Under the pieces are notes generated by a model. The model was not told the DNA's origin, ran no database searches, and worked only from the letters and a program-made list of their open reading frames with translations. The position numbers and the translations under genes are program-made. Source: a virus. From it: a stretch of 64,000 nt of DNA. Each line of letters begins with the position of its first letter. Within the stretch, counting starts at the first letter, position 1. Below, one piece after another: positions 10,577 to 45,031 of this stretch. The stretch is taken from positions 64,060 through 128,059 of the IMG/VR virus record IMGVR_UViG_3300021185_002167; one strand, 5' to 3'.

Positions 10577-10846
10577 ATGGAACTGGAAATAGCTGATATA
10601 GTAGGTAAGTATGGATTTCCAACTGTCATGGTTGTAGGTTTAGGATATTTTGTATATTTTGTTTATAACTTTATACAAGAACATTTAGACCCTGCAACAG
10701 AAAAAATGCATTTTCAATTAATAAAAGTGATTGACCAAATGAGAATGTTAGACCAAGACCTTATAAGATTACAGCAAAAAGTAGATACAGTATTGGAATA
10801 TAAAGAAAATGAAAAGAAAAAACAAGATAGAAAAGATGAAGTATAA
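10577..10846 (+). CDS. Single-TM plus coiled-coil protein, apparent paralog of the previous gene
   Basis: IVGKYGFPTVMVVGLGYFVYFVY followed by a heptad-rich tail. Confidence 0.65.
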   Translation: MELEIADIVGKYGFPTVMVVGLGYFVYFVYNFIQEHLDPATEKMHFQLIKVIDQMRMLDQDLIRLQQKVDTVLEYKENEKKKQDRKDEV

Positions 10847-11348
10847 AGCAGAAGCATTTACCTTAATGGGAATATTTATTTTGTCGATATCAAGTCTTGG
10901 TGTAAGTGCTGCAGAGATAGTACATAAATTTAAAAATCCTTCCTTTAGTGGAATAGGTACTGCTTCTCATTATCTTACTGTAGAGAATCAAGAATTCTCT
11001 CGTAAGAAATCTATAGAAGAAGCATTAGCTGCAGCAGAAAAAGCAGCGCAAAGAGAAGCTGAGAATACTACTCTTGCTAAGTTTATAAGAAACTTGGAAA
11101 GTAGAATATATGCTCAAATGTCAAAACAACTTGTTGAGAGTATGTTTCAAAATGATGGCGCAGTAAGATTTGGTTCCTTTACATTAGAAGGATCAGTCGT
11201 TACTTATGAAGTGATAACCAATGAAGATGGTTCAGAATATATTAAAATGTCTATAATCGATGCAAATGGAACTGAAACTGTTATTCAAATTCCTATAGGA
11301 ACAGGTTACTTCGGGAGCGATTATGGTACGTCAGCTGACGGCGGTTAG
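10836..11348 (+). CDS. csgF: Curli assembly protein CsgF-like
   Basis: Signal peptide then AEIVHKFKNPSFSG (CsgF F.NP.F.G motif), F...LESRIYAQ.S.QL; directly upstream of csgG. Confidence 0.85.
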   Translation: MKYKAEAFTLMGIFILSISSLGVSAAEIVHKFKNPSFSGIGTASHYLTVENQEFSRKKSIEEALAAAEKAAQREAENTTLAKFIRNLESRIYAQMSKQLVESMFQNDGAVRFGSFTLEGSVVTYEVITNEDGSEYIKMSIIDANGTETVIQIPIGTGYFGSDYGTSADGG

Positions 11349-12240
11349 TCTTTCAATAGCCCTATTATCTAGTTGCGCAGCTGTACCTAGATACTCAGAA
11401 AATCCTCAGGATTGTAATAAAGATACATGGGGCGAACAGTATGACCATGACCTATGGAACTATGCAAAAGCTTCAGGAAGAACATTTGAAAGAGCAATAC
11501 CGTTTATATGTGTTGACGCACCTGAAGTTGTTAAGTTACCATCATTTATAAAACTACTACAACTTCCACCAGCTGAATCTAAACCAGTAGTTGCAGTTTA
11601 CCAATTTGCAGATAAAACTGGTCAAAGAAAAGCAAGAGAAGGTATAGCCGATTTTTCTACAGCAGTTACTCAAGGTAGTACTGAAATGTTAATTGATGCT
11701 CTTAAAAGCGCAGGTAATGGTAGTTGGTTTAGAGTTGTAGAGAGACAAGGATTAGATAACCTTGTAAGAGAAAGACAAATTATTAGAAGTGCTCGTCAAG
11801 ATATTGCAAAAGCAAAAGGCGAAGAAGAAGCACAAGGTATACAACCACTATTATTTGCTGGAATGATAATAGAAGGTGGTATAATAGGTTATGATACAAA
11901 CATCCTATCCGGTGGCCGTGGAGCTAGAACGTTAGGTATAGGAATAAGCAGACAATATCGTAAAGATGTTGTAACAGTTTCAATTAGAGCAGTATCTGTT
12001 CTAACTGGAGAAGTTTTATTAAACGTCCAAAGTAAGAAAACTATCTTATCTTATGGAAGTGGCGGTGATATTTTTCGATTTATCGAAGAAGGTACACAAT
12101 TGATAGAGTATGAAGACGGAGTGGGTAAAAATGAGTCAGTGACATACGCAGTACGAACAGCCATCGAGGCCGGAGTACTGGAATTAATCAACCAAGGTCA
12201 TGATAGAAGATTTTGGAAAATAGAAGGAAAAGAAACATGA
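11323..12240 (+). CDS. csgG: Curli secretion channel lipoprotein CsgG
   Basis: Lipobox LLSSC; VAVYQF.DKTGQRK, FSTAVTQG, WFRVVER.GLDNL..ERQIIR, EGGIIGYD, V.TGEVL motifs. Confidence 0.95.
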   Translation: MVRQLTAVSLSIALLSSCAAVPRYSENPQDCNKDTWGEQYDHDLWNYAKASGRTFERAIPFICVDAPEVVKLPSFIKLLQLPPAESKPVVAVYQFADKTGQRKAREGIADFSTAVTQGSTEMLIDALKSAGNGSWFRVVERQGLDNLVRERQIIRSARQDIAKAKGEEEAQGIQPLLFAGMIIEGGIIGYDTNILSGGRGARTLGIGISRQYRKDVVTVSIRAVSVLTGEVLLNVQSKKTILSYGSGGDIFRFIEEGTQLIEYEDGVGKNESVTYAVRTAIEAGVLELINQGHDRRFWKIEGKET

Positions 12241-14811: not shown

Positions 14812-16650
14812 ATGAAATATTTAACTTCAATATGGACAACTATTATACTTGGTATTACACTTTTAGGTGTAAGAATTCTAGACCCTCAGTTATTAGAACA
14901 GTTTAGGCTCAGCATATTCGATCAGTATATACAATCTCTTCCAGTAGAACATTCGAACGATATAGTGTTGATTAATATATCCGAGTCTTCACTCGAAGCT
15001 TATGGTCAATACCCTTGGCCACGTCAGAATCACGCAGCAGTGATTTCTGATTTAAGGAACTCGAATGCTGGCATGATAGGGTTTACTATAATGTTTCCAG
15101 AAGAAGATCGTTTCGGAGGTGACACTATCTTTGCGTCTTGGATAAAAGATAATGGTATTATTCTTGCACAAGATGCGGATCAAAATGGGAGAAGTTCTAA
15201 AGCACCTTATGTAGGGTATGCAACATTTGGTTATTCAGGAGATCCATTAGATCTTACATATCGATATAAAGGACTGATTACAAATATAGAAGAATTAGAG
15301 AAACATGCATGGGGAGTAGGTCTATTAAATGGAGCTCCTGAAGTAGATAATCTTACAAGAAGAATACCATTAATGTCTCAAGTTAACGGAGATTTATATC
15401 CATCATTTGCATTAGAAACTGTAAGAGCAATGCAAGATAAGAAATCGTATACAATAAAGTTAAATGAAGCTGGAATTGAAAGTATAGTATTAAGACCTTT
15501 TATAATACCAACAGATGAGAGAGGTAGTATATGGTTAAAATGGAATACACACTTTGAATCAATTGATTATGATGGACAACCATTACCAGATTTAAAAGGA
15601 AAGACAGCAATTATAGGAGTTACTGCAAAAGGTATTGTTCCTCAAGTATCTACTCCAGCTGGGTTATTATATCCACATCAAATACAAGCAAATGCATTAC
15701 AGACAATAATATCTGATAATCCTATATCACGGCCTCAATGGACTTATCTTGCTGAACTTGCAATGATTCTGATTGGTTCTCTTCTGATTGTATTAACTGT
15801 ATACTATCTTCCGATATGGGTCGGTGCTGTATCCTTCGTCGGCTCTGCAATCGCTGTAAGCTTTGCTTCTTATTACGCCTGGTACGAATTTTCTATACTC
15901 CTCGATTTATCAGCTACTCTAATAATATATATACTTTTACTCACCTCATCGAGTTTCAATAATTTTTATAAACAATTCGTATTAAGACAACAAGTAAAGA
16001 AACAATTTGGTACATATGTATCTCCTGACTTAGTTAAACAATTACAAAAAGACCCATCACTCTTACGATTAGGTGGAGAAAGAAAAGAGATGACCTTTAT
16101 GTTTATGGATATATGTGGATTCACTCCTATATCAGAATATTATAAAAACAAAGATGACCCAGAAGGACTTGTAATTCTTATAAATAATTATTTAGATACT
16201 ATGACAAAAATCGTTTTAAAGAACGGTGGAACTATAGATAAATTTATGGGTGATTGTATCATGGCATTTTGGAATGCTCCACTTGATTGTGAAGACCATG
16301 CCTTTAAAGCTGTACAAACATCGATCGAAATATGCGAGGCAGCTGATGAACTTATACAACAACTTGAAGAGCAAGGTTTACCTAGGATTGATATTGGCAT
16401 TGGTATCAACACCGGGACTTGTATTGTCGGAAATATGGGTTCAGAATCTAGATTTGACTATTCCGTCATTGGAGATGCCGTTAACCTCGGGGCTAGACTC
16501 GAAGGCCAAACAAGAAATTATGATGGGGTTCGAGTGTTGTTGGGACCGGAAACTTATAGAAGCTGTAAAGACCGAAGAGTATTTACACAAATCGATAGAA
16601 TCCGTGTTAAAGGAAAATCCGAGAAAGTTACAATATACTCACCAATCTAG
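14812..16650 (+). CDS. CHASE2-domain class III adenylate cyclase
   Basis: CHASE2 motifs (I.E.SL..YGQYPWPR, D...RRIPL, YPSFALE), three TM helices, cyclase motifs FMDICGFT, DKFMGDCIMAFWNAP, GIGINTG, GNMGS..RFDYSVIGDAVNLGARLE. Confidence 0.95.
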   Translation: MKYLTSIWTTIILGITLLGVRILDPQLLEQFRLSIFDQYIQSLPVEHSNDIVLINISESSLEAYGQYPWPRQNHAAVISDLRNSNAGMIGFTIMFPEEDRFGGDTIFASWIKDNGIILAQDADQNGRSSKAPYVGYATFGYSGDPLDLTYRYKGLITNIEELEKHAWGVGLLNGAPEVDNLTRRIPLMSQVNGDLYPSFALETVRAMQDKKSYTIKLNEAGIESIVLRPFIIPTDERGSIWLKWNTHFESIDYDGQPLPDLKGKTAIIGVTAKGIVPQVSTPAGLLYPHQIQANALQTIISDNPISRPQWTYLAELAMILIGSLLIVLTVYYLPIWVGAVSFVGSAIAVSFASYYAWYEFSILLDLSATLIIYILLLTSSSFNNFYKQFVLRQQVKKQFGTYVSPDLVKQLQKDPSLLRLGGERKEMTFMFMDICGFTPISEYYKNKDDPEGLVILINNYLDTMTKIVLKNGGTIDKFMGDCIMAFWNAPLDCEDHAFKAVQTSIEICEAADELIQQLEEQGLPRIDIGIGINTGTCIVGNMGSESRFDYSVIGDAVNLGARLEGQTRNYDGVRVLLGPETYRSCKDRRVFTQIDRIRVKGKSEKVTIYSPI

Positions 16651-17003: not shown

Positions 17004-17032
17004 TTTACATTTGCTCCCAACTAGGGTATAAT
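17004..17032 (+). promoter_or_regulatory. sigma70-type early promoter
   Basis: TTTACA-17bp-TATAAT; 28/29 identical to 17988-18016. Confidence 0.85.
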
Positions 17033-17065
17033 ATACCTATACAATTTAAAAGATAAGGAGTTTAA

Positions 17066-17365
17066 ATGAATATAACAACAATAAAAGAAATCGTTCAAGA
17101 ATTTGATGGCATCAAATTTACAACAAGTGGTAAAACTTTCGAAGGCTATGTCAAAGAAGTTAATGACACTGATATAACTGTAAGAGCATATGATAAAGAT
17201 GAAGTTGAACCTAATGGGTTAGCTGATCATTCTACATATATCTTACCTTACGTAACATTTAAAGGTATTAATTTAGAATGGTTTTATGAAGGACAAGGAG
17301 CTGATAATTCAGCAATCGGAATGTCTGGATATTGGGTTAACGATTTACAAGAGGTAGTAGCATAA
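17066..17365 (+). CDS. Hypothetical early protein
   Basis: Strong TAAGGAG RBS behind the promoter. Confidence 0.75.
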   Translation: MNITTIKEIVQEFDGIKFTTSGKTFEGYVKEVNDTDITVRAYDKDEVEPNGLADHSTYILPYVTFKGINLEWFYEGQGADNSAIGMSGYWVNDLQEVVA

Positions 17366-17935: not shown

Positions 17936-17987
17936 GAATAGAACAACACTTTCTCACAATTATTTCACCAAAAAGTGAAAATAATCC

Positions 17988-18016
17988 TTTACATTTGCTC
18001 CCAACTATGGTATAAT
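17988..18016 (+). promoter_or_regulatory. sigma70-type early promoter
   Basis: TTTACA-17bp-TATAAT, preceded by an imperfect inverted repeat at 17959-17985. Confidence 0.85.
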
Positions 18017-18049
18017 AACTATATATTCAATTGATAAGGAGTATAAGAT

Positions 18050-18559
18050 ATGAATAAATTAGTAATAAACACGCAATACCTAGAGAACTACGGTACTCAA
18101 GAGGACCCTTACATGAAGTTCAAGGGTGGTAATACCTTTGTACTTCCTAACTGTGGAGAGTTGGACTCTAACGAAATTGCTACAGTCGTAGCTAGAGTTA
18201 GACCATTCATCACTACTACTTTGGCAGAGTCCAATGGCGGTTGTGAGGAATACATCATTGATTCTACAGTTGTACCACATTCTGCAAAAGCTTGTGAGGA
18301 CTGGGAAACAATCACTGACTTTTGTTTTGACCAATTCACTGGTGATGTTCATTTCATCAAAATTACTGACAACCGTGAAGATGGTTGGATGAGAAAAGAA
18401 ATTCTCGAAGTAACTGAGACATGGACTAACAACCGTGAAAACTATAAGAAAGAATTCTTAATGGACGACGGCGATTTATGTGTTGGCGACAAAGAGGCAA
18501 ATGCCTGGCTTAAACTGAATACAGTAAAACCAAAAATGGAAAGAAACATAACATTTTAA
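18050..18559 (+). CDS. Conserved hypothetical early protein
   Basis: TQY.ENYG...KFKGG motif; TAAGGAG RBS. Confidence 0.75.
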   Translation: MNKLVINTQYLENYGTQEDPYMKFKGGNTFVLPNCGELDSNEIATVVARVRPFITTTLAESNGGCEEYIIDSTVVPHSAKACEDWETITDFCFDQFTGDVHFIKITDNREDGWMRKEILEVTETWTNNRENYKKEFLMDDGDLCVGDKEANAWLKLNTVKPKMERNITF

Positions 18560-19200: not shown

Positions 19201-19478
19201 TAGAAAAGCAAAGAATAAAAATTGCAGCTGAAGAGTGGGCAGGTAAAGTTAAATCAATACATGCTCATAGCTTATCAAGTTTGTATTATGATGATCGACC
19301 ACAAGATACTCAAGGCAATAAAAGCGTAGTTGATATAGAATATAACTCAGGAAGAGTTGAAAGAAAACTTATTAATACAGGAGAAACCTTTATCTTTGAC
19401 AAATATGAACTTAAGGGCAATGACCTTTTACAGACGTTTGGCCAAAATAATGAAAATAATCCTTTACATTTGACTTAA
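19179..19478 (+). CDS. Hypothetical protein
   Basis: ORF in the early cluster with a purine-rich RBS. Confidence 0.7.
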   Translation: MGQYDKVVEKQRIKIAAEEWAGKVKSIHAHSLSSLYYDDRPQDTQGNKSVVDIEYNSGRVERKLINTGETFIFDKYELKGNDLLQTFGQNNENNPLHLT

Positions 19479-19491
19479 AGTATGGTATAAT
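19463..19491 (+). promoter_or_regulatory. sigma70-type early promoter
   Basis: TTTACA-17bp-TATAAT. Confidence 0.85.
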
Positions 19492-19497
19492 ATACAT

Positions 19498-19746
19498 ATG
19501 AACGAATATTTAATTGAAAAGAATAAAATGATGGGAGGTATACAAAAAGTATATAAGTTCCCTAATGGATATGGTGCAAGCGTTATTCAACATAAAGGTT
19601 CATATGGATATGTAAAGGGGCAATGGGAAGTTGCTGTATTACATGAAGGTCAACTTTGTTATTCAACTCCTATCACATCTGATGTCATAGGTCATCTTAA
19701 TGACCCAGAGGTTGATAACATTTTAGGTAAAATATTTAGATTATGA
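19498..19746 (+). CDS. Conserved phage hypothetical protein
   Basis: YKFPNGYGASVI...SYG...G.WEVAVL...L.Y.TPIT.DVIG.L motif. Confidence 0.8.
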   Translation: MNEYLIEKNKMMGGIQKVYKFPNGYGASVIQHKGSYGYVKGQWEVAVLHEGQLCYSTPITSDVIGHLNDPEVDNILGKIFRL

Positions 19747-19874: not shown

Positions 19875-20224
19875 TGGGTGCAACTAATTTTTATATGGGT
19901 TCATTACGATATGATATCCACGGCAGAAAAAGAAAGAAGCATGCTTCTAACAGAGTAAAGAAAAAGCCTGTTGAGTTTAAACCAATGACTATTGAAGTAT
20001 CTACTCTTGACCAACTACGAGCTGAACAAGCAGCTCAATACAAATCAGTTATGGAAGACTATATGAAAGATGGTAACTATCCAAAATCTGATACTACTAA
20101 AAAAGAAACAATGAAATACACAGGTACTCTTGTCAAAGGTATTGCTACAATGCATAAGTCAAATGCAGTCCCAGTTATTTCACAACAAGAAGCTGAGGAT
20201 ATCAGCAAAATGAGGAGAAACTAA
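19874..20224 (+). CDS. Conserved T4-like hypothetical protein
   Basis: C-terminal YTG....GIATMHKSNAVPV......A.DIS.MRR. Confidence 0.8.
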   Translation: MGATNFYMGSLRYDIHGRKRKKHASNRVKKKPVEFKPMTIEVSTLDQLRAEQAAQYKSVMEDYMKDGNYPKSDTTKKETMKYTGTLVKGIATMHKSNAVPVISQQEAEDISKMRRN

Positions 20225-20346
20225 TGAATACAATATTTAGTATACTATTACTGATAGGTACTGCATGGTTTGCATTTATGTCAGCTCATGTTTCTTCAGA
20301 ACAAAAAGAAGGAAAAACTATTCGATTACCTTGGGAAAAGGAATAA
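20224..20346 (+). CDS. 40-aa membrane micro-protein
   Basis: AGGAG RBS, TAATG overlap, N-terminal TM. Confidence 0.55.
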   Translation: MNTIFSILLLIGTAWFAFMSAHVSSEQKEGKTIRLPWEKE

Positions 20347-20438
20347 TGGAATACTTTTTATATTTTATATTATTCTGTATGATATGCAACGGTATTGTAT
20401 ACGTAATACAAGAATTAATTAATAAGTTTTATGATTGA
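20346..20438 (+). CDS. 30-aa hydrophobic micro-protein
   Basis: AAGGA RBS and TAATG overlap. Confidence 0.45.
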   Translation: MEYFLYFILFCMICNGIVYVIQELINKFYD

Positions 20439-20490
20439 ACTTCATCAACGCAACTCCTTATCACCCGCGGAAGTTCAATCATATTTTTTT
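20430..20490 (+). ncRNA. Long stem-loop with anti-Shine-Dalgarno loop and U-tail (terminator and/or 3'-derived sRNA)
   Basis: Perfect 14-bp inverted repeat 20430-20443 / 20470-20483; loop contains AACTCCTTATCA; followed by T7. Confidence 0.55.
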
Positions 20491-20499
20491 AAAAAAACG

Positions 20500-20528
20500 T
20501 TTACATTTGATAAGGAATGTGGTATAAT
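20500..20528 (+). promoter_or_regulatory. sigma70-type early promoter
   Basis: TTTACA-17bp-TATAAT. Confidence 0.85.
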
Positions 20529-20557
20529 AGATCTATATAGTTAATAAGGAGAAATAT

Positions 20558-21673
20558 ATGGCTAAAAGAAAAAGAGGACCAAGTCTTGATGAAAAGTATC
20601 TTGGACCAGAACCAATATATACAAGTGAATCAGATTTTACCGGTGGAAACTGGACTAAAGGCGTTCATTGGTATAACTATTTTTATAAACAAAAAGATTA
20701 TATGCCAACAACTCATCAGTTCTGTAAAGACGTAATGGGATGGGATAAGAAAAAAATATCAGTACTTAAAAGGCTTAAAGACTACAGATTTATGAAAGTT
20801 AATAAGTTGATTAAAATGTATTATAGAGGTTGGCAATATCCAGAAGAACAAATCACTTCTATAAAAGATTTTATCAATGAACAATACAAAGTAGCTTTAA
20901 AAGAAAAGAAAGTTGAAGAAGCTAAAAAGGCTGATGTAGTTATTATATCACCAGCTGAAAGAACTCGTATGAAAGTTATGGACACTATATATTATGACTT
21001 TGATTCTACTATAGTTGAAGGTTGGCTTGAAGGAGAATTTAAACAAAAGTTTAATGCTTTTAATCGATTTAAACTACATCAGCTTAAAGGTAACGCAATT
21101 AATATATTTAAAGCTCTTGTCGAAACTGAATATAATAATATCAAAGATGCTTATGAAAAGAATTGCGATCAAGCAGTAGAAGCATACTCTCATTTTACGA
21201 AAGGCGAAAAGAGCAAGATGCTTAAACAGCTTGAAGAGATATTTGTCGATCTTGAAAGACTAAGAGATTCTTTTAAAGCGACAAGGTCTACTAAAGTTAA
21301 AAAAGTTAAAGCTTCAGATCAACAAGTAACTAAGCTTAAGTATTGTGCAGAAAACTTAGATGCTAAATTAACATCTATTAATCCTGTTGCGATACCAGGT
21401 AAAACTAAACTATATGTTTATAACTGTAAGAATAAAAAGCTTATGGAGTATGTAACATCATCAATAGGTGGCTTTGAAATATCAGGTACATCTATAAGAA
21501 ATTTTGAAAAAGAATCTCGACAAGCTACATTAAGAAAGCCTGATGAAATATTACCAATGGTTCTTAATAAGACTGAAAAACAAATTGAGAAGATATGGGA
21601 AACGTTAACAACTAAAATAGATAAACCCACAGGAAGAATAAATGCTGACTGTATTTTAATGAGAGTATTTTAA
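20558..21673 (+). CDS. Conserved T4-like hypothetical protein
   Basis: YLGPEP, WYNYFY, SINP..I.G...LYVYN, TLRKP and GRIN...IL motifs; upstream of gp33. Confidence 0.75.
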   Translation: MAKRKRGPSLDEKYLGPEPIYTSESDFTGGNWTKGVHWYNYFYKQKDYMPTTHQFCKDVMGWDKKKISVLKRLKDYRFMKVNKLIKMYYRGWQYPEEQITSIKDFINEQYKVALKEKKVEEAKKADVVIISPAERTRMKVMDTIYYDFDSTIVEGWLEGEFKQKFNAFNRFKLHQLKGNAINIFKALVETEYNNIKDAYEKNCDQAVEAYSHFTKGEKSKMLKQLEEIFVDLERLRDSFKATRSTKVKKVKASDQQVTKLKYCAENLDAKLTSINPVAIPGKTKLYVYNCKNKKLMEYVTSSIGGFEISGTSIRNFEKESRQATLRKPDEILPMVLNKTEKQIEKIWETLTTKIDKPTGRINADCILMRVF

Positions 21674-21683
21674 GGAAAAAATT

Positions 21684-21929
21684 ATGTCAGATAATCCAGT
21701 AGAACAAAAAGTAATGACAAAGAAAAGATTTTCTGCAGCAGTAGAACATCTTGTCGCTAATAACAATATGTCTTATATCGATTCAGCAGCTTATATAGTT
21801 GAACAAAGAGGTATGGACTATAAGAATATGAAGAAGCTTTTAACAGATTCTTTAAAACAAAAGATTGAAGAAGAAGCAGCTAGCTTAAATTTAATCAAAA
21901 TCAAACGAACTAATAAATTACCATTATAA
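21684..21929 (+). CDS. gp33: Late transcription coactivator gp33
   Basis: F...VE.LV....MSYID, LK.KIE.EA..LN.I and terminal KLPL; synteny with 59 and 32. Confidence 0.88.
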   Translation: MSDNPVEQKVMTKKRFSAAVEHLVANNNMSYIDSAAYIVEQRGMDYKNMKKLLTDSLKQKIEEEAASLNLIKIKRTNKLPL

Positions 21930-42700: not shown

Positions 42701-45031
42701 CCAGAAGGAGACGAATGGAAAGAGACAGACGTAAGACCTAATGTTATTATTGATGATTCATCAGCATACGAACAGTTTGCTCAAATGGCAGAAGAAGCAG
42801 GTATTCTAGGAACAGTTTGGAACGAATGGGAAACAAACTGGACTGGAGTTGAAGTCGATTCTGATACAAGAGAAACAGGTAATAGAGTAGACCTAAGAGG
42901 AAGAGGATTAGCTGTAGAAGAAGGATTCTTTGGATTAGGTACTGGTAGATTAGGCGTAAGTCAAACAACTACAACTACAAGAACAACAACTCAAAATCAA
43001 TCAAGATCAGGTTTAAGAACTGATTTAGCATTTGATACAGTACAAAGAACAGATGGAACAAGAGTTGTTGAAGTTAACTTTGTACCATTTATCAGATCAA
43101 GAAAAGTATTCTTTAAAGCTCAGCTTTTAAAACCAGGTACACAGGTTTATGCATTCTTTGATAGCGTAAACGTTACAGATTTCTGCGCAGAAGAAAGCTT
43201 TACAGAATTCTCAGATCAAACAAATGTAGATACATTTGAAGGAACAACAGTACATCCATCAAATGGCAATTTAATTACAGACGCTTCGGGCATAGTGGAA
43301 GGTTCGTTTATCATACCAAGAAATGCCGCGCTTAAGTTCCAAACTGGTGTAAGAGAATTTAGACTTACAGACAGTTCTACAAACAATAAGGATAGCGAAA
43401 CAACCTATGCCGAAGCTCAGTATCATGCTCAAGGATTATTAGAATCAGTAGAAAGTAGAGTAGTATCAACAAAGGTTCCAAGATTAGTTCAATCAGAATT
43501 AAACGATGATAGAACTATAGTAGATAGTCAAGTATCTGAAACAACTGAATGGGTAGATCCATTAGCAGAAACTATTCTTATTGATAAGCAAGGTGGTATC
43601 TTTGCAAAATCAGTTGACTTATTCTTTAAAACAAAAGATACATCAATACCAGTAAGAGTTACTTTAAGAACAACTCAAAATGGTACACCAACACAAAGAA
43701 TCGTTCCAGGAGCTGATAAGATTTTATATCCATCATCAGTTAACGTATCAGCTGATGCATCAACAGCAACAAACTTTGCTTTCGACTATCCAGTTTATTT
43801 AGCTCAGGATACTGAATATGCAATAGTAATTACATCTCAATGTGATAACTATGAAGTATATGTAGCTGAAATGGGTGGATTTGATTTAACAAATACCGCT
43901 GAAAGAATTACAAAACAACCATACGGTGGTGTATTCTTTACATCTCAAAATGCTTCAACATGGACTCCAGAACAAAGTAAAGATCTTAAGTTTAAATTAA
44001 ACAGAGCTTCATTTACTGGTTCATCTGCTGAAATCACATTAGTTAATGATATATTACCAGTACGTAAACTCGTAGGTAATCCACTCTCAACAACAAGTGG
44101 TTCTAAAGTAATTACAGTTACTCATAAAAATCATGGTATGCATGATTCAACATCTAAAGTAACAATAGATGGCGCAGCAACTACTAACGGTATTACAGGC
44201 AGTGATATTGATGGTACATATACAATAAGCAATATTACTCATGATAGTTATTCAATTACTGCAACTGGTAGTAATAATGCTTCAGCCACAGGAGCAGGTG
44301 GTGGTTCATCTGTAACAGCAACTGAAAATAGACATATTGATGTCATGTATCCAGTGCTTCAAAACTTACAAATACCTGGTACATCTCTTAGATTCTTTGC
44401 TACAATTTATAGCTCACAAAGTATCGATGGTTCAGAAGCAGCTCATCAGCCATCAAATGAATTTGAAATATTACCAAATAAAAACTATGTATTTGATGCT
44501 CCAAAAATGATTGGTTCTTCAATACAAGAATCAAACAATATGAGTGGTAATAAGTCTCTTTCAATAAGATGCGTACTTAGTACAACAAACGAAGCTTTAT
44601 CTCCTGTAATAGACATGAACAGAGCTTCAGTCCATACAATACAAAACATAGTAAGTTCAAACGGTGGATCTGAAGCAGTAACTTCAGGCGGAGCAGAACT
44701 TACAAGATATATTACTAAAAAGGTAGAACTTAATGAAGAAGCAGATACTGCAACTATTTTCTTAAATGCAAGTAGACCAGGTTCAGCAAATATAGATTTA
44801 TACTATAGAACATTAGAAGGTGGTTCATCTTCAAACATTAATGATGTAGCATTTGTTGCGGCTTCTCCAGTAGAATCTATACCAGTTAATGAAACTGGTT
44901 TTTCTGAAGTAAGATACGATATAGACCCAACAGGTAGTTTTGGTACTATACAGTTTAAAATAGTATTACGTTCAACAGTATCTTCTACTCCACCAAGAAT
45001 AAAAGATTTTAGAGCAATCTGTGCAACATAG
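39800..45031 (+). CDS. Large virion structural protein (VrlC / DUF4815-like)
   Basis: PYYDDFD..KNY.RILFRPG..VQARELTQLQ, LARRT.EESGDY, RI.NLEYYTSLSLLE and DPLA.T; TATAAATA at 39773-39780. Confidence 0.88.
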   Translation: MTTTVVKNYSIAPYYDDFDETKNYHRILFRPGYSVQARELTQLQTALQAQIDRYGQFAFKDGSRVVNGKVTLNVQYDFIKIESSFTHSTAGALNADNYLSEFVGTTITGATTGVTATVVEVIAAGGSDPATLYLKYTNSGTNNTTSTFSAGEELSSDAGTVRYGKVGGGSGSSISNPTGQGSSINIEEGVYFIAGTFAYVPAGSLILDKYTNTPNYIIGLKVTESVVDSTTDTTLLDNAQGVPNTAAPGATRYKIATTLIKESLNFSSRTEDSYITLVVIEDGKTSVDKTDKTGDTELTERLARRTFEESGDYVVEPFQIQKREYLNDGTNDGYRTTAEIIADGDAANTSAATTFGNDRLAIGVDPSVAYVKGFRVQNNTTKNVIVEKPRGANATNNVNVATTSIPVGNYVKLTPSTVKGMPDVNDFSTLNLHNATGQGGSVVGTARARSIEYVGTELRLYLFDINMTSGTFSAVRSIEQADSGQAFIGDLALAGNLFDVGNNGLVFKLPYSAVKTLYTAANAAVVDTVYVVKQLFETSGSTISIASGQGTFINTSTITASLGTGVIDVTPTISSGSDGSTSLTFSDVSGVAPGSAELKVMADVQKNLLHKTKTRTNNSTKTGALSGGSLSLGKADIIRIVSVVDAQSVDITERFTLDNGQRDNFYDIGKISLKPGFSTPSGNIVVTFDFYEHGSGDYFTVDSYPTADYDTIPAFSSQQGLVQLRDCLDFRPRKADAADNFTATGSSNPQPPKPGHAAIAEVTHYMPRIDKLYITRRGEFKTEIGVPSLNPKAPETPEDAMGIYNLKLNPYVYTIDDVKPEIIDNRRYTMRDIGSLDKRIKNLEYYTSLSLLEQSAADIELYDSGGFSRLKNGFIVDGFKGHNIADSSNPDYSASIDKTNGLLRPKFDERNANLVRKASDSGTAVKNGSIVTMPHTSTNYINQPYSSFASNVNPYNVFSWAGTIELSPEGDEWKETDVRPNVIIDDSSAYEQFAQMAEEAGILGTVWNEWETNWTGVEVDSDTRETGNRVDLRGRGLAVEEGFFGLGTGRLGVSQTTTTTRTTTQNQSRSGLRTDLAFDTVQRTDGTRVVEVNFVPFIRSRKVFFKAQLLKPGTQVYAFFDSVNVTDFCAEESFTEFSDQTNVDTFEGTTVHPSNGNLITDASGIVEGSFIIPRNAALKFQTGVREFRLTDSSTNNKDSETTYAEAQYHAQGLLESVESRVVSTKVPRLVQSELNDDRTIVDSQVSETTEWVDPLAETILIDKQGGIFAKSVDLFFKTKDTSIPVRVTLRTTQNGTPTQRIVPGADKILYPSSVNVSADASTATNFAFDYPVYLAQDTEYAIVITSQCDNYEVYVAEMGGFDLTNTAERITKQPYGGVFFTSQNASTWTPEQSKDLKFKLNRASFTGSSAEITLVNDILPVRKLVGNPLSTTSGSKVITVTHKNHGMHDSTSKVTIDGAATTNGITGSDIDGTYTISNITHDSYSITATGSNNASATGAGGGSSVTATENRHIDVMYPVLQNLQIPGTSLRFFATIYSSQSIDGSEAAHQPSNEFEILPNKNYVFDAPKMIGSSIQESNNMSGNKSLSIRCVLSTTNEALSPVIDMNRASVHTIQNIVSSNGGSEAVTSGGAELTRYITKKVELNEEADTATIFLNASRPGSANIDLYYRTLEGGSSSNINDVAFVAASPVESIPVNETGFSEVRYDIDPTGSFGTIQFKIVLRSTVSSTPPRIKDFRAICAT

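Follow-up and report, generated by a model that had tools for sequence, protein, structure and literature searches.

A conserved hairpin RNA behind an early gene block of a T4-type phage carries a loop complementary to the phage's own early Shine-Dalgarno leaders

Why should a block of early phage genes be followed by a long hairpin whose loop is the complement of the phage's own early ribosome-binding sites (RBSs)? The question is raised by a locus in the window, our term for a whole 64,000-nucleotide (nt) stretch of viral DNA that comprises positions 64,060 to 128,059 of IMG/VR record IMGVR_UViG_3300021185_002167. The window is the second half of this 128-kb record, whose G+C content is 34%. 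The hairpin occupies 20430-20483 on the + strand, between an early gene block and a gene for a 371-amino-acid (aa) protein. A preliminary description had proposed that it is a small RNA (sRNA) derived from a transcript's 3' end, which covers strong Shine-Dalgarno (SD) sequences. Comparison with related phages indicates that the hairpin is a conserved RNA family outside Rfam, found also in deeper lineages. With modest confidence, we favor the reading that it acts as an anti-leader RNA, occluding early RBSs either in trans or by 5'-3' pairing on one transcript. We lean this way because the loop is complementary to early leaders beyond the SD core and co-varies with those leaders across lineages.

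The hairpin has a well-defined predicted structure. RNAfold returns exactly a 14-bp stem, a bulge, an inner helix and a loop, with a free energy of -18.6 kcal/mol (z = -5.5), and only 1 of 200 shuffles was equally stable. The 5' arm of the outer stem, TATGATTGAACTTC (20430-20443), pairs perfectly with the 3' arm, GAAGTTCAATCATA (20470-20483); both arms are supported by fold and co-variation, and the stem, 14 bp here, ranges from 9 to 17 bp in relatives. A one-sided 5-nt bulge, ATCAA (AUCAA in RNA; 20444-20448), appears in both fold and alignment and is semi-conserved in the closest lineage. It leads into an inner 3-bp helix of CGC (20449-20451) and GCG (20467-20469), also supported by co-variation in the alignment, which closes a 15-nt loop, AACTCCTTATCACCC (20452-20466; RNA AACUCCUUAUCACCC). 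Within the loop lies a nearly invariant core, ACUCCUUAUCA (20453-20463), the exact complement of an early leader motif, UGAUAAGGAGU. A T7 tract (20484-20490; U7 in RNA) follows the stem and is itself followed by A7. What the preliminary description had stated about the stem, its CGC/GCG extension, the loop and the T7 tract all holds in the sequence and in the RNAfold prediction. The hairpin is single-copy in the 128-kb record.

Is this structure maintained by selection? In an alignment of 25 distinct hairpin copies, the outer stem and inner helix are paired in 99.1% of cells, with compensatory changes at 11 of 14 pairs. None of 500 shuffles reached the observed pairing and compensation, and slid controls were 32-42% paired. 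The inner-helix pair that involves 20469 co-varies between C-G and U-A (CG in 19 rows, UA in 6). From the 25 aligned copies we built a covariance model, the kind of search in relatives that the preliminary description had suggested, and tested it on 80 IMG/VR loci fetched via the 371-aa protein. The model found the element directly 5' of the homologue of the 371-aa gene in 75 of the 80 loci; four of the five misses have less than 50 nt of upstream DNA, and the fifth (L087) is a diverged hairpin. When 50 distinct sequences were aligned by fitting them to the model, 98.8% of cells were paired and 13 of 14 pairs compensated. In the alignment of 25 copies, 33 cells hold a G-U or U-G pair, and each of these would turn into an A-C mismatch if read on the minus strand. 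Since such cells are tolerated only on the + strand, that alignment indicates that the selected structure is the + strand RNA.

The loop follows a different course from the stem that carries it. A 19-nt loop string is unchanged in 42 IMG/VR stretches, including loci at which the neighboring protein is only ~52% identical. Where identity of the 371-aa protein is 48-60%, the stem sequence has changed completely and no inner helix remains, and the loop still reads ACUCCUUAUCA; L058 departs from this core by a single-base variant and L044 by a small change. Deeper lineages, which we reached by a fetch with the L087 protein, always have a long stem 5' of the gene, and their loops keep ACUCCU(U/C) and differ further 3'. 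Taken together, these comparisons support strong selection on the loop.

If the loop is selected, what might it pair with? Two sites upstream on the same strand are complementary to it at 11 of 11 positions: GATAAGGAGTT at 17052-17062, just 5' of the ATG at 17066, and TGATAAGGAGT at 18032-18042, just 5' of the ATG at 18050. Both matches, which the preliminary description had reported, are exact, and both leaders lie behind TTTACA-N17-TATAAT promoters. The best predicted target is the leader and RBS UGAUAAGGAGU at 18032-18042, which precedes the gene at 18050-18559 and follows a promoter at 17988-18016. The second predicted target, GAUAAGGAGUU at 17052-17062, matches in another register and belongs to the gene at 17066-17365, with its promoter at 17004-17032. 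No stable structure is predicted for the leaders at 18023 and 17039 (-2.0 and -0.4 kcal/mol), and the loop-leader duplexes are predicted at about -17 to -21 kcal/mol. The TAAGGAG sequences that had been noted before 18570 and 20558 are present as well; on the + strand of the whole record TAAGGAG occurs at six sites, 6/6 at RBSs and 4/6 directly behind early promoters. Weaker loop-matching leaders lie tens of kb away. The UGAU part of the leader is presumably beyond the reach of pairing by the 16S 3' tail.

The leader motif is tied to promoters rather than to particular genes. In related phages, (U)GAUAAGGAG(U)(U) is found at the gene that comes first after an early promoter, regardless of its identity, and UGAUAAGGAGU is the RBS motif of promoter-plus-leader cassettes before many unrelated early genes. 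Homologues of the gene at 18050, which we call the MNKLVI... family, have the leader in 10 of 18 distinct contexts, all of them promoter-proximal, and have another RBS (CAUGGAGGU...) in six contexts inside operons. Because this family has the leader only when promoter-proximal, the motif belongs to a portable promoter-plus-leader cassette, resembling the promoter-early stem-loop (PeSL) cassettes known from other T4-type phages (PMC4122927). The leader of gp32 does not have the motif. The MNKLVI... protein itself (18050-18559; 169-177 aa; no PHROG or Pfam family) is, in most lineages, the commonest gene behind the best loop-matching leader.

In lineages whose loops depart from the canonical core, early leaders on the same contig differ in a complementary way. 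In L161 the loop CUCCUCAAUCAAU is accompanied by two leaders, AUUGAUUGAGGAG and AUUGAUUGAGGA, which match it over 13 and 12 nt. In L168/L169 the loop reads ...AUCAC and the leader GUGAUAAGGAGUU, and in the sister locus L170 the loop reads ...AUCAU and the leader AUGAUAAGGAGUU; each native pair matches over 13 nt, whereas the cross-combinations match over 12 nt each. Similarly, L148 pairs a loop ACUCCUUUUU with a leader AAAAAGGAGU, and L152 a loop UAUUUUACUCCUU with a leader AAGGAGUAAAAUA that extends into the start codon. L059 has the loop flank UCAUCAA and, 5' of an SD, UUGAUGA. Across 19 loop types, own-lineage complementarity summed to 194 against a permuted mean of 159, and 0 of 20,000 permutations reached 194, a test that is inflated by unequal leader-set sizes and also affected by relatedness; some true leaders (L056 and L059 types) were missed by the promoter pattern used in it or broken by a 1-nt bulge.

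The same relationship appears when each loop is compared with its own surroundings. The survey took in 56 distinct contexts that each offer 2 kb or more of upstream DNA; L044, L087, L148-L151 and L174 were left out, seven loci in which the hairpin went undetected by the script and is visible by eye. In 43 of the 56, the longest stretch on the sense strand that is complementary to the locus's own loop reaches at least 10 nt (10-13 nt). In 47 contexts this longest stretch falls just 5' of an open reading frame (ORF) start, in 39 with an early promoter before it as well, and its distance upstream is mostly 1-3.5 kb. In a comparison with controls over 35 contexts, matches of at least 10 nt were found for the true complement in 25/35, for the loop itself in 2, for the reversed loop in 3, for the loop complemented only in 4, and for shuffles in 17/175.

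Several of these results also weigh against the anti-leader reading. The number of loop matches in the window alone is not significant: the four sites that match with at most one mismatch compare with an expectation of 1.77, and shuffling yields four in 9 of 100 cases. The evidence that the pairing exceeds chance comes instead from the location of all matches at RBSs, together with the conservation and co-variation in relatives. Even there, the control baseline is high in AT-rich DNA, as the 17 of 175 shuffles that reach 10 nt illustrate, related contexts are phylogenetically non-independent, and the permutation test has the biases given above. On our reading, only about four of nine lineages have a leader that pairs with the base following AUCA. 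An extended match is lost in the L079-type loop variant, the match in the L154 group is only 8-nt or bipartite, and the loop changes of L058 and L044 are not cleanly compensated. Roughly three quarters of contexts lack a U-tract, leaving no evident source of a discrete small RNA there. The available RNA data, from four metatranscriptome library runs, consist entirely of assembled contigs at a depth of 2-10, which cannot show RNA ends or levels; one contig of library X4 (20320-21700) and one of X17 (20387-20583) span the hairpin and the promoter behind it, which does not by itself demonstrate transcription. Finally, cassette recombination could also keep loop and leader alike.

Our favored reading of the hairpin as an anti-leader RNA suggests the following mechanism, in which the hairpin probably switches early protein synthesis off. 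The stable, co-varying stem would hold the loop open, and its core ACUCCUUAUCA would base-pair with the leader UGAUAAGGAGU. The hairpin would accumulate as early transcription proceeds, either at the 3' end of an early transcript (here, at U7) or within read-through RNA. At the best predicted target, the loop would pair across the SD, from -18 to -8 counted from the AUG of the gene at 18050, blocking 30S binding and possibly creating a nuclease substrate. The expected outcome is that translation of the class of early genes with this leader would be shut off or damped. Pairing may occur in trans, or it may close a single polycistronic early transcript on itself. The latter is possible because both targets share the strand of the hairpin, 2.4 and 3.4 kb upstream of it, and a consensus scan of the window for simple terminators listed no + strand terminator-like site between 17000 and 20430. 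Action in trans would be needed for the weaker matching leaders, since these are tens of kb away. Of the early-gene shut-off by SD occlusion put forward in the preliminary description, the selected loop, its complementarity to the phage's own early RBS leaders and its co-variation with them stand on computed structure, conservation, strand, complementarity and co-variation; the repression itself, like the accumulation of the RNA and its pairing in the cell, we infer from these.

Could the hairpin be just a terminator? It shares with Rho-independent terminators a stable G+C-containing stem (14+3 bp) that closes a transcription unit and runs into U7, and in this phage the tract is a probable intrinsic terminator. 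Unlike them, it has a loop of 15 nt (26 nt without the inner helix), compared with the usual 3-8, and the simple terminator consensus scan of the window did not list the hairpin site. A minority of relatives have such a tract: a script counted a U-tract 3' of the hairpin in 9 of 56 distinct contexts, and, as the script misplaced the stem end in at least six contexts that were then read by eye, the count by eye is ~15 of 56. An early promoter lies within 70 nt 3' of the hairpin in at least 42 of 56 contexts, its -35 box often abutting the stem, and in seven contexts the SD of the next gene is directly 3' of the stem. Because a U-tract is present in only ~15 of 56 contexts, the hairpin is, on comparative evidence, more than a mere terminator. 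The earlier proposal of a 3'-end-derived sRNA behind a terminator would fit this phage, with its U7, and is lineage-specific, given how few contexts have the tract.

Other functions would account for parts of these observations. On the minus strand, the same bases provide a perfect SD, TAAGGAG, with an ATG 8 nt on that opens eight codons (MKFNHKTY), and the preliminary description had offered this small ORF as its alternative. It is contradicted by the 33 G-U pairs of the stem, which become A-C mismatches on that strand, and by the absence of the ATG in relatives (L034 and L036 groups). The deeper lineages have no start at a fixed distance, the supposed peptide corresponds to freely co-varying stem sequence, and no minus-strand promoter is listed nearby; a minus-strand gene is, in our judgment, scarcely credible. 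The loop might instead mimic the anti-SD tail of 16S rRNA and so act as a general decoy, binding either strong host SDs or factors associated with the ribosome, among them the phage-encoded bS21. It does hold CUCCUUA and, in this phage, AUCACC, both of them segments of the 16S tail, and ACUCCU(U/C) is the sole part kept in all lineages. However, AUCACC is confined to the closest lineages, and the conserved AUCA and the lineage-specific flanks match phage leaders, not 16S. The 16S-tail segments that had been pointed out in the loop are thus present here, with AUCACC not kept outside the closest lineages. Neither a 16S mimic nor a general dampening of host translation is favored, as only ACUCCU(U/C) is universal, and we regard such a mimic as very unlikely.

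Two further alternatives take the neighborhood of the hairpin as their starting point. In the published account of PeSL cassettes of T4-type phages, a stem-loop stands 5' of a sigma70-like early promoter, which is followed by an SD and a start codon, in plastic early regions (PMC4122927). The hairpin could be such a composite terminator and promoter cassette with no RNA-RNA function, in which it would only end or stabilize the upstream transcript and the loop would be an inverted scrap of leader kept alike by recombination or gene conversion. The order of stem-loop, sigma70-type promoter, SD and ATG at this locus is exactly the PeSL order as that source gives it, the early promoter is at most 70 nt away in at least 42 of 56 contexts, and the leader motif is part of a mobile promoter-leader module. 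In addition, an 18-nt match links the L077/L080-type loop to a leader from a different lineage, which is what an inverted copy would produce. A passive scrap, though, is not expected to stay invariant amid full turnover of the stem and beside a neighboring protein of less than 50% identity, and 11-13 nt of inverted homology would be very little for gene conversion to act on. The stem-loop that accompanies other early promoters of this phage is a different one, small and AT-rich (17963-17980), and the hairpin is single-copy, with a U-tract in just ~15 of 56 contexts. On balance we consider a cassette of this kind unlikely. The hairpin might also be a protein operator. RegA, the 371-aa product or some other protein of phage or host would then recognize the loop and control RNA processing or the gene downstream. 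An invariant loop held by a co-varying stem is typical of protein operators, as in the T4 gp43 and MS2-type operators; the element always stands beside the same 371-aa gene, and the phage encodes a RegA homologue. This explanation leaves the loop's complementarity to leaders, and their joint change, unaccounted for, and with a promoter in between (at least 42 of 56 contexts) the hairpin falls outside the 371-aa gene's own transcript. No Pfam family covers the 371-aa protein, and when its AlphaFold model (mean pLDDT score 75.5) was compared with PDB structures by Foldseek, none matched at E 0.001 or better, so that neither family nor fold hints at RNA binding. We consider a protein operator distinctly unlikely.

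How does an anti-leader hairpin compare with known systems? In the c4 RNA of phages P1 and P7, as summarized in PMC12197685, loop sequences pair around the RBS of a separately transcribed phage mRNA and block its translation. The hairpin resembles c4 in displaying in its loop a sequence complementary to a predicted target RBS. The two differ in that c4 belongs to temperate phages and acts on one antirepressor operon in immunity, whereas here a single hairpin is found in a lytic T4-type phage and the leader is common to several early cassettes. In the icaR mRNA of Staphylococcus aureus, according to the summary of that system in PMC3868564, a C/U-rich anti-SD motif in the 3' untranslated region (UTR) pairs with the SD in the mRNA's own 5' UTR, blocks initiation and forms an RNase III substrate. 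Here too an anti-SD motif lies 3' of an SD leader, with the best targets 1-3.5 kb upstream on the same strand. The icaR mRNA is bacterial and monocistronic and uses a UCCCCUG motif, whereas in our phage the transcript would be polycistronic, with an internal promoter on the way (19463-19491), and additional leaders that match the loop are tens of kb away. With PeSLs the hairpin shares its layout (hairpin end 20483, promoter 20500-20528, SD 20545, ATG 20558), but PeSL stem-loops are short, occur in many copies per genome and are not reported to have a conserved loop, whereas this hairpin is single-copy, long and GC-rich, and its invariant loop is complementary to the SD leader that the cassettes themselves carry. 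By analogy with c4 and icaR, the principle of loop-mediated antisense occlusion of an RBS appears to be a known one. What is new is the position at the end of a lytic T4-type early block and the target, a portable leader common to many early genes.

Searches of databases and literature returned no earlier instance of the element within their scope. An Rfam 15 cmscan of 20200-20700 with E up to 10 gave only chance-level matches (best E 0.24) and no c4; the best scores were 17-18 bits, compared with gathering scores of 51-54. Against named phage records, blastn of 20000-21000 found no match and the 43-nt hairpin query found chance matches only (E 0.7-9). The genome of HTVC008M contains no copy of the hairpin, forward and control counts being equal. 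Among bacterial genomes, the 19-mer turns up in four unrelated bacteria, a count close to our estimate for chance, and in none of them with the long stem of the phage type. In the literature on phage sRNAs with anti-SD loops, on pelagimyophages and on PeSLs, we found no description of the hairpin in the articles themselves, supplementary files (for example, those of PMC7029224) being outside this scope.

T4 offers functional analogues of the proposed activity, in which the RegB endoribonuclease and the RegA translational repressor shut off early translation at the SD and initiation regions of early mRNAs; these are proteins, whereas the factor proposed here is an RNA. A search of the phage for RegB gave no match, though the search's control likewise matched nothing. 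More tentatively, leader and anti-leader might form a portable RNA system of address and timer, possibly with participation of the phage bS21, an extension of our reading that we hold possible and rather doubtful. In such a system, a gene recombined behind an early promoter-leader cassette would gain a tag that is read by one hairpin. The hairpin at the end of the early block would close onto the 5' leader of its own mRNA and also act in trans on sister cassettes. The SD-led early class would go off while leaderless early genes and late genes continue, making the hairpin an RNA counterpart of T4 RegB and RegA in an abundant group of ocean myophages. T4-type phages are a textbook case of timed expression whose known early shut-off factors are proteins, and a conserved RNA directed at a common early leader would add an RNA layer. 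Pelagimyophage-like phages, moreover, are abundant in the sea and hard to culture. Such an RNA would explain why the early-leader motif is longer than the ribosome needs and how newly acquired early genes come under instant control. The inter-locus RNA-RNA co-variation makes this an unusually clean case.

What phage carries this element? The record is T4-like, with gp33, DsbA, gp59 and gp32 downstream of the 371-aa gene, and it encodes homologues of CsgF and CsgG as well as ribosomal protein bS21. In a pelagimyophage survey, bS21 is core and a curli cluster is widespread in the group (PMC7029224). The gp32 protein is 52-55% identical to homologues in cultured cyanophages, HTVC008M and Melnitz. 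Because of this gene content, and because gp32 is only 52-55% identical to that of cultured phages, the sequence comparisons place this marine phage in an uncultured, pelagimyophage-like T4-type lineage.

The immediate neighbors of the hairpin are a small gene and a promoter. The last gene of the early block is a 30-codon hydrophobic ORF (20346-20438, + strand) that begins at an internal ATG (20346) in the frame of ORF 20265-20438, and its TGA stop codon (20436-20438) falls within the 5' arm of the stem. An early promoter, TTTACA-N17-TATAAT (20500-20528, + strand), stands 16 bases 3' of the stem in a PeSL-like layout. Its spacer holds TGATAAGGAAT (20508-20518), which is 10/11 of the leader motif and complementary to the loop, and several relatives (for example, the L024, L036, L041, L048, L015 and L040 groups) have GATAAGGA-type strings in the spacer of the same promoter. 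The motif at 20508-20518 would be transcribed only in read-through RNA. Beyond the promoter are the SD TAAGGAG (20545-20551) and the 371-aa gene itself (20558-21673, + strand), which is always 3' of the hairpin. Its protein is conserved, has a basic N-terminus and is encoded upstream of gp33; tblastn against named phage records found only distant hypothetical proteins in alphaproteobacterial and Pseudomonas phages (phiM12-, Cr30- and PA5oct-type). The gene's own SD matches only 7-8 nt of the loop, 8 nt in this phage. We rejected a cis pseudoknot with the downstream gene's SD as the hairpin's main role, as such SDs match only 4-8 nt of the loop and never its AUCA part, and wherever hairpin and SD adjoin, the linker would not be long enough to reach past the stem. 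A replication origin was rejected as well, the cumulative GC skew being monotonic with no turn at the hairpin.

Further early promoters of the phage show other arrangements. The small AT-rich stem-loop at 17963-17980, TTTCAC-N6-GTGAAA, lies a few bases 5' of a -35 box; the same module stands before other early promoters (for example, in L139 and L142) and is a PeSL-like repeat distinct from the large hairpin. At the early promoter 19463-19491, the ATG at 19498 is only 6 nt past the -10 box, which would make the mRNA leaderless or nearly so. There appear to be two classes of early genes, SD-led and leaderless, and the hairpin could touch the SD-led class only. The bS21 gene, outside the window at 44374-44523 of the record, also lies behind an early promoter, and its leader, AAAGGAGUGAU, resembles the complement of the 16S 3' tail and not the cassette leader. 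Upstream in the window, at 10809-12240 and 14812-16650, are the CsgF and CsgG homologues and a gene for a CHASE2-adenylate/guanylate cyclase.

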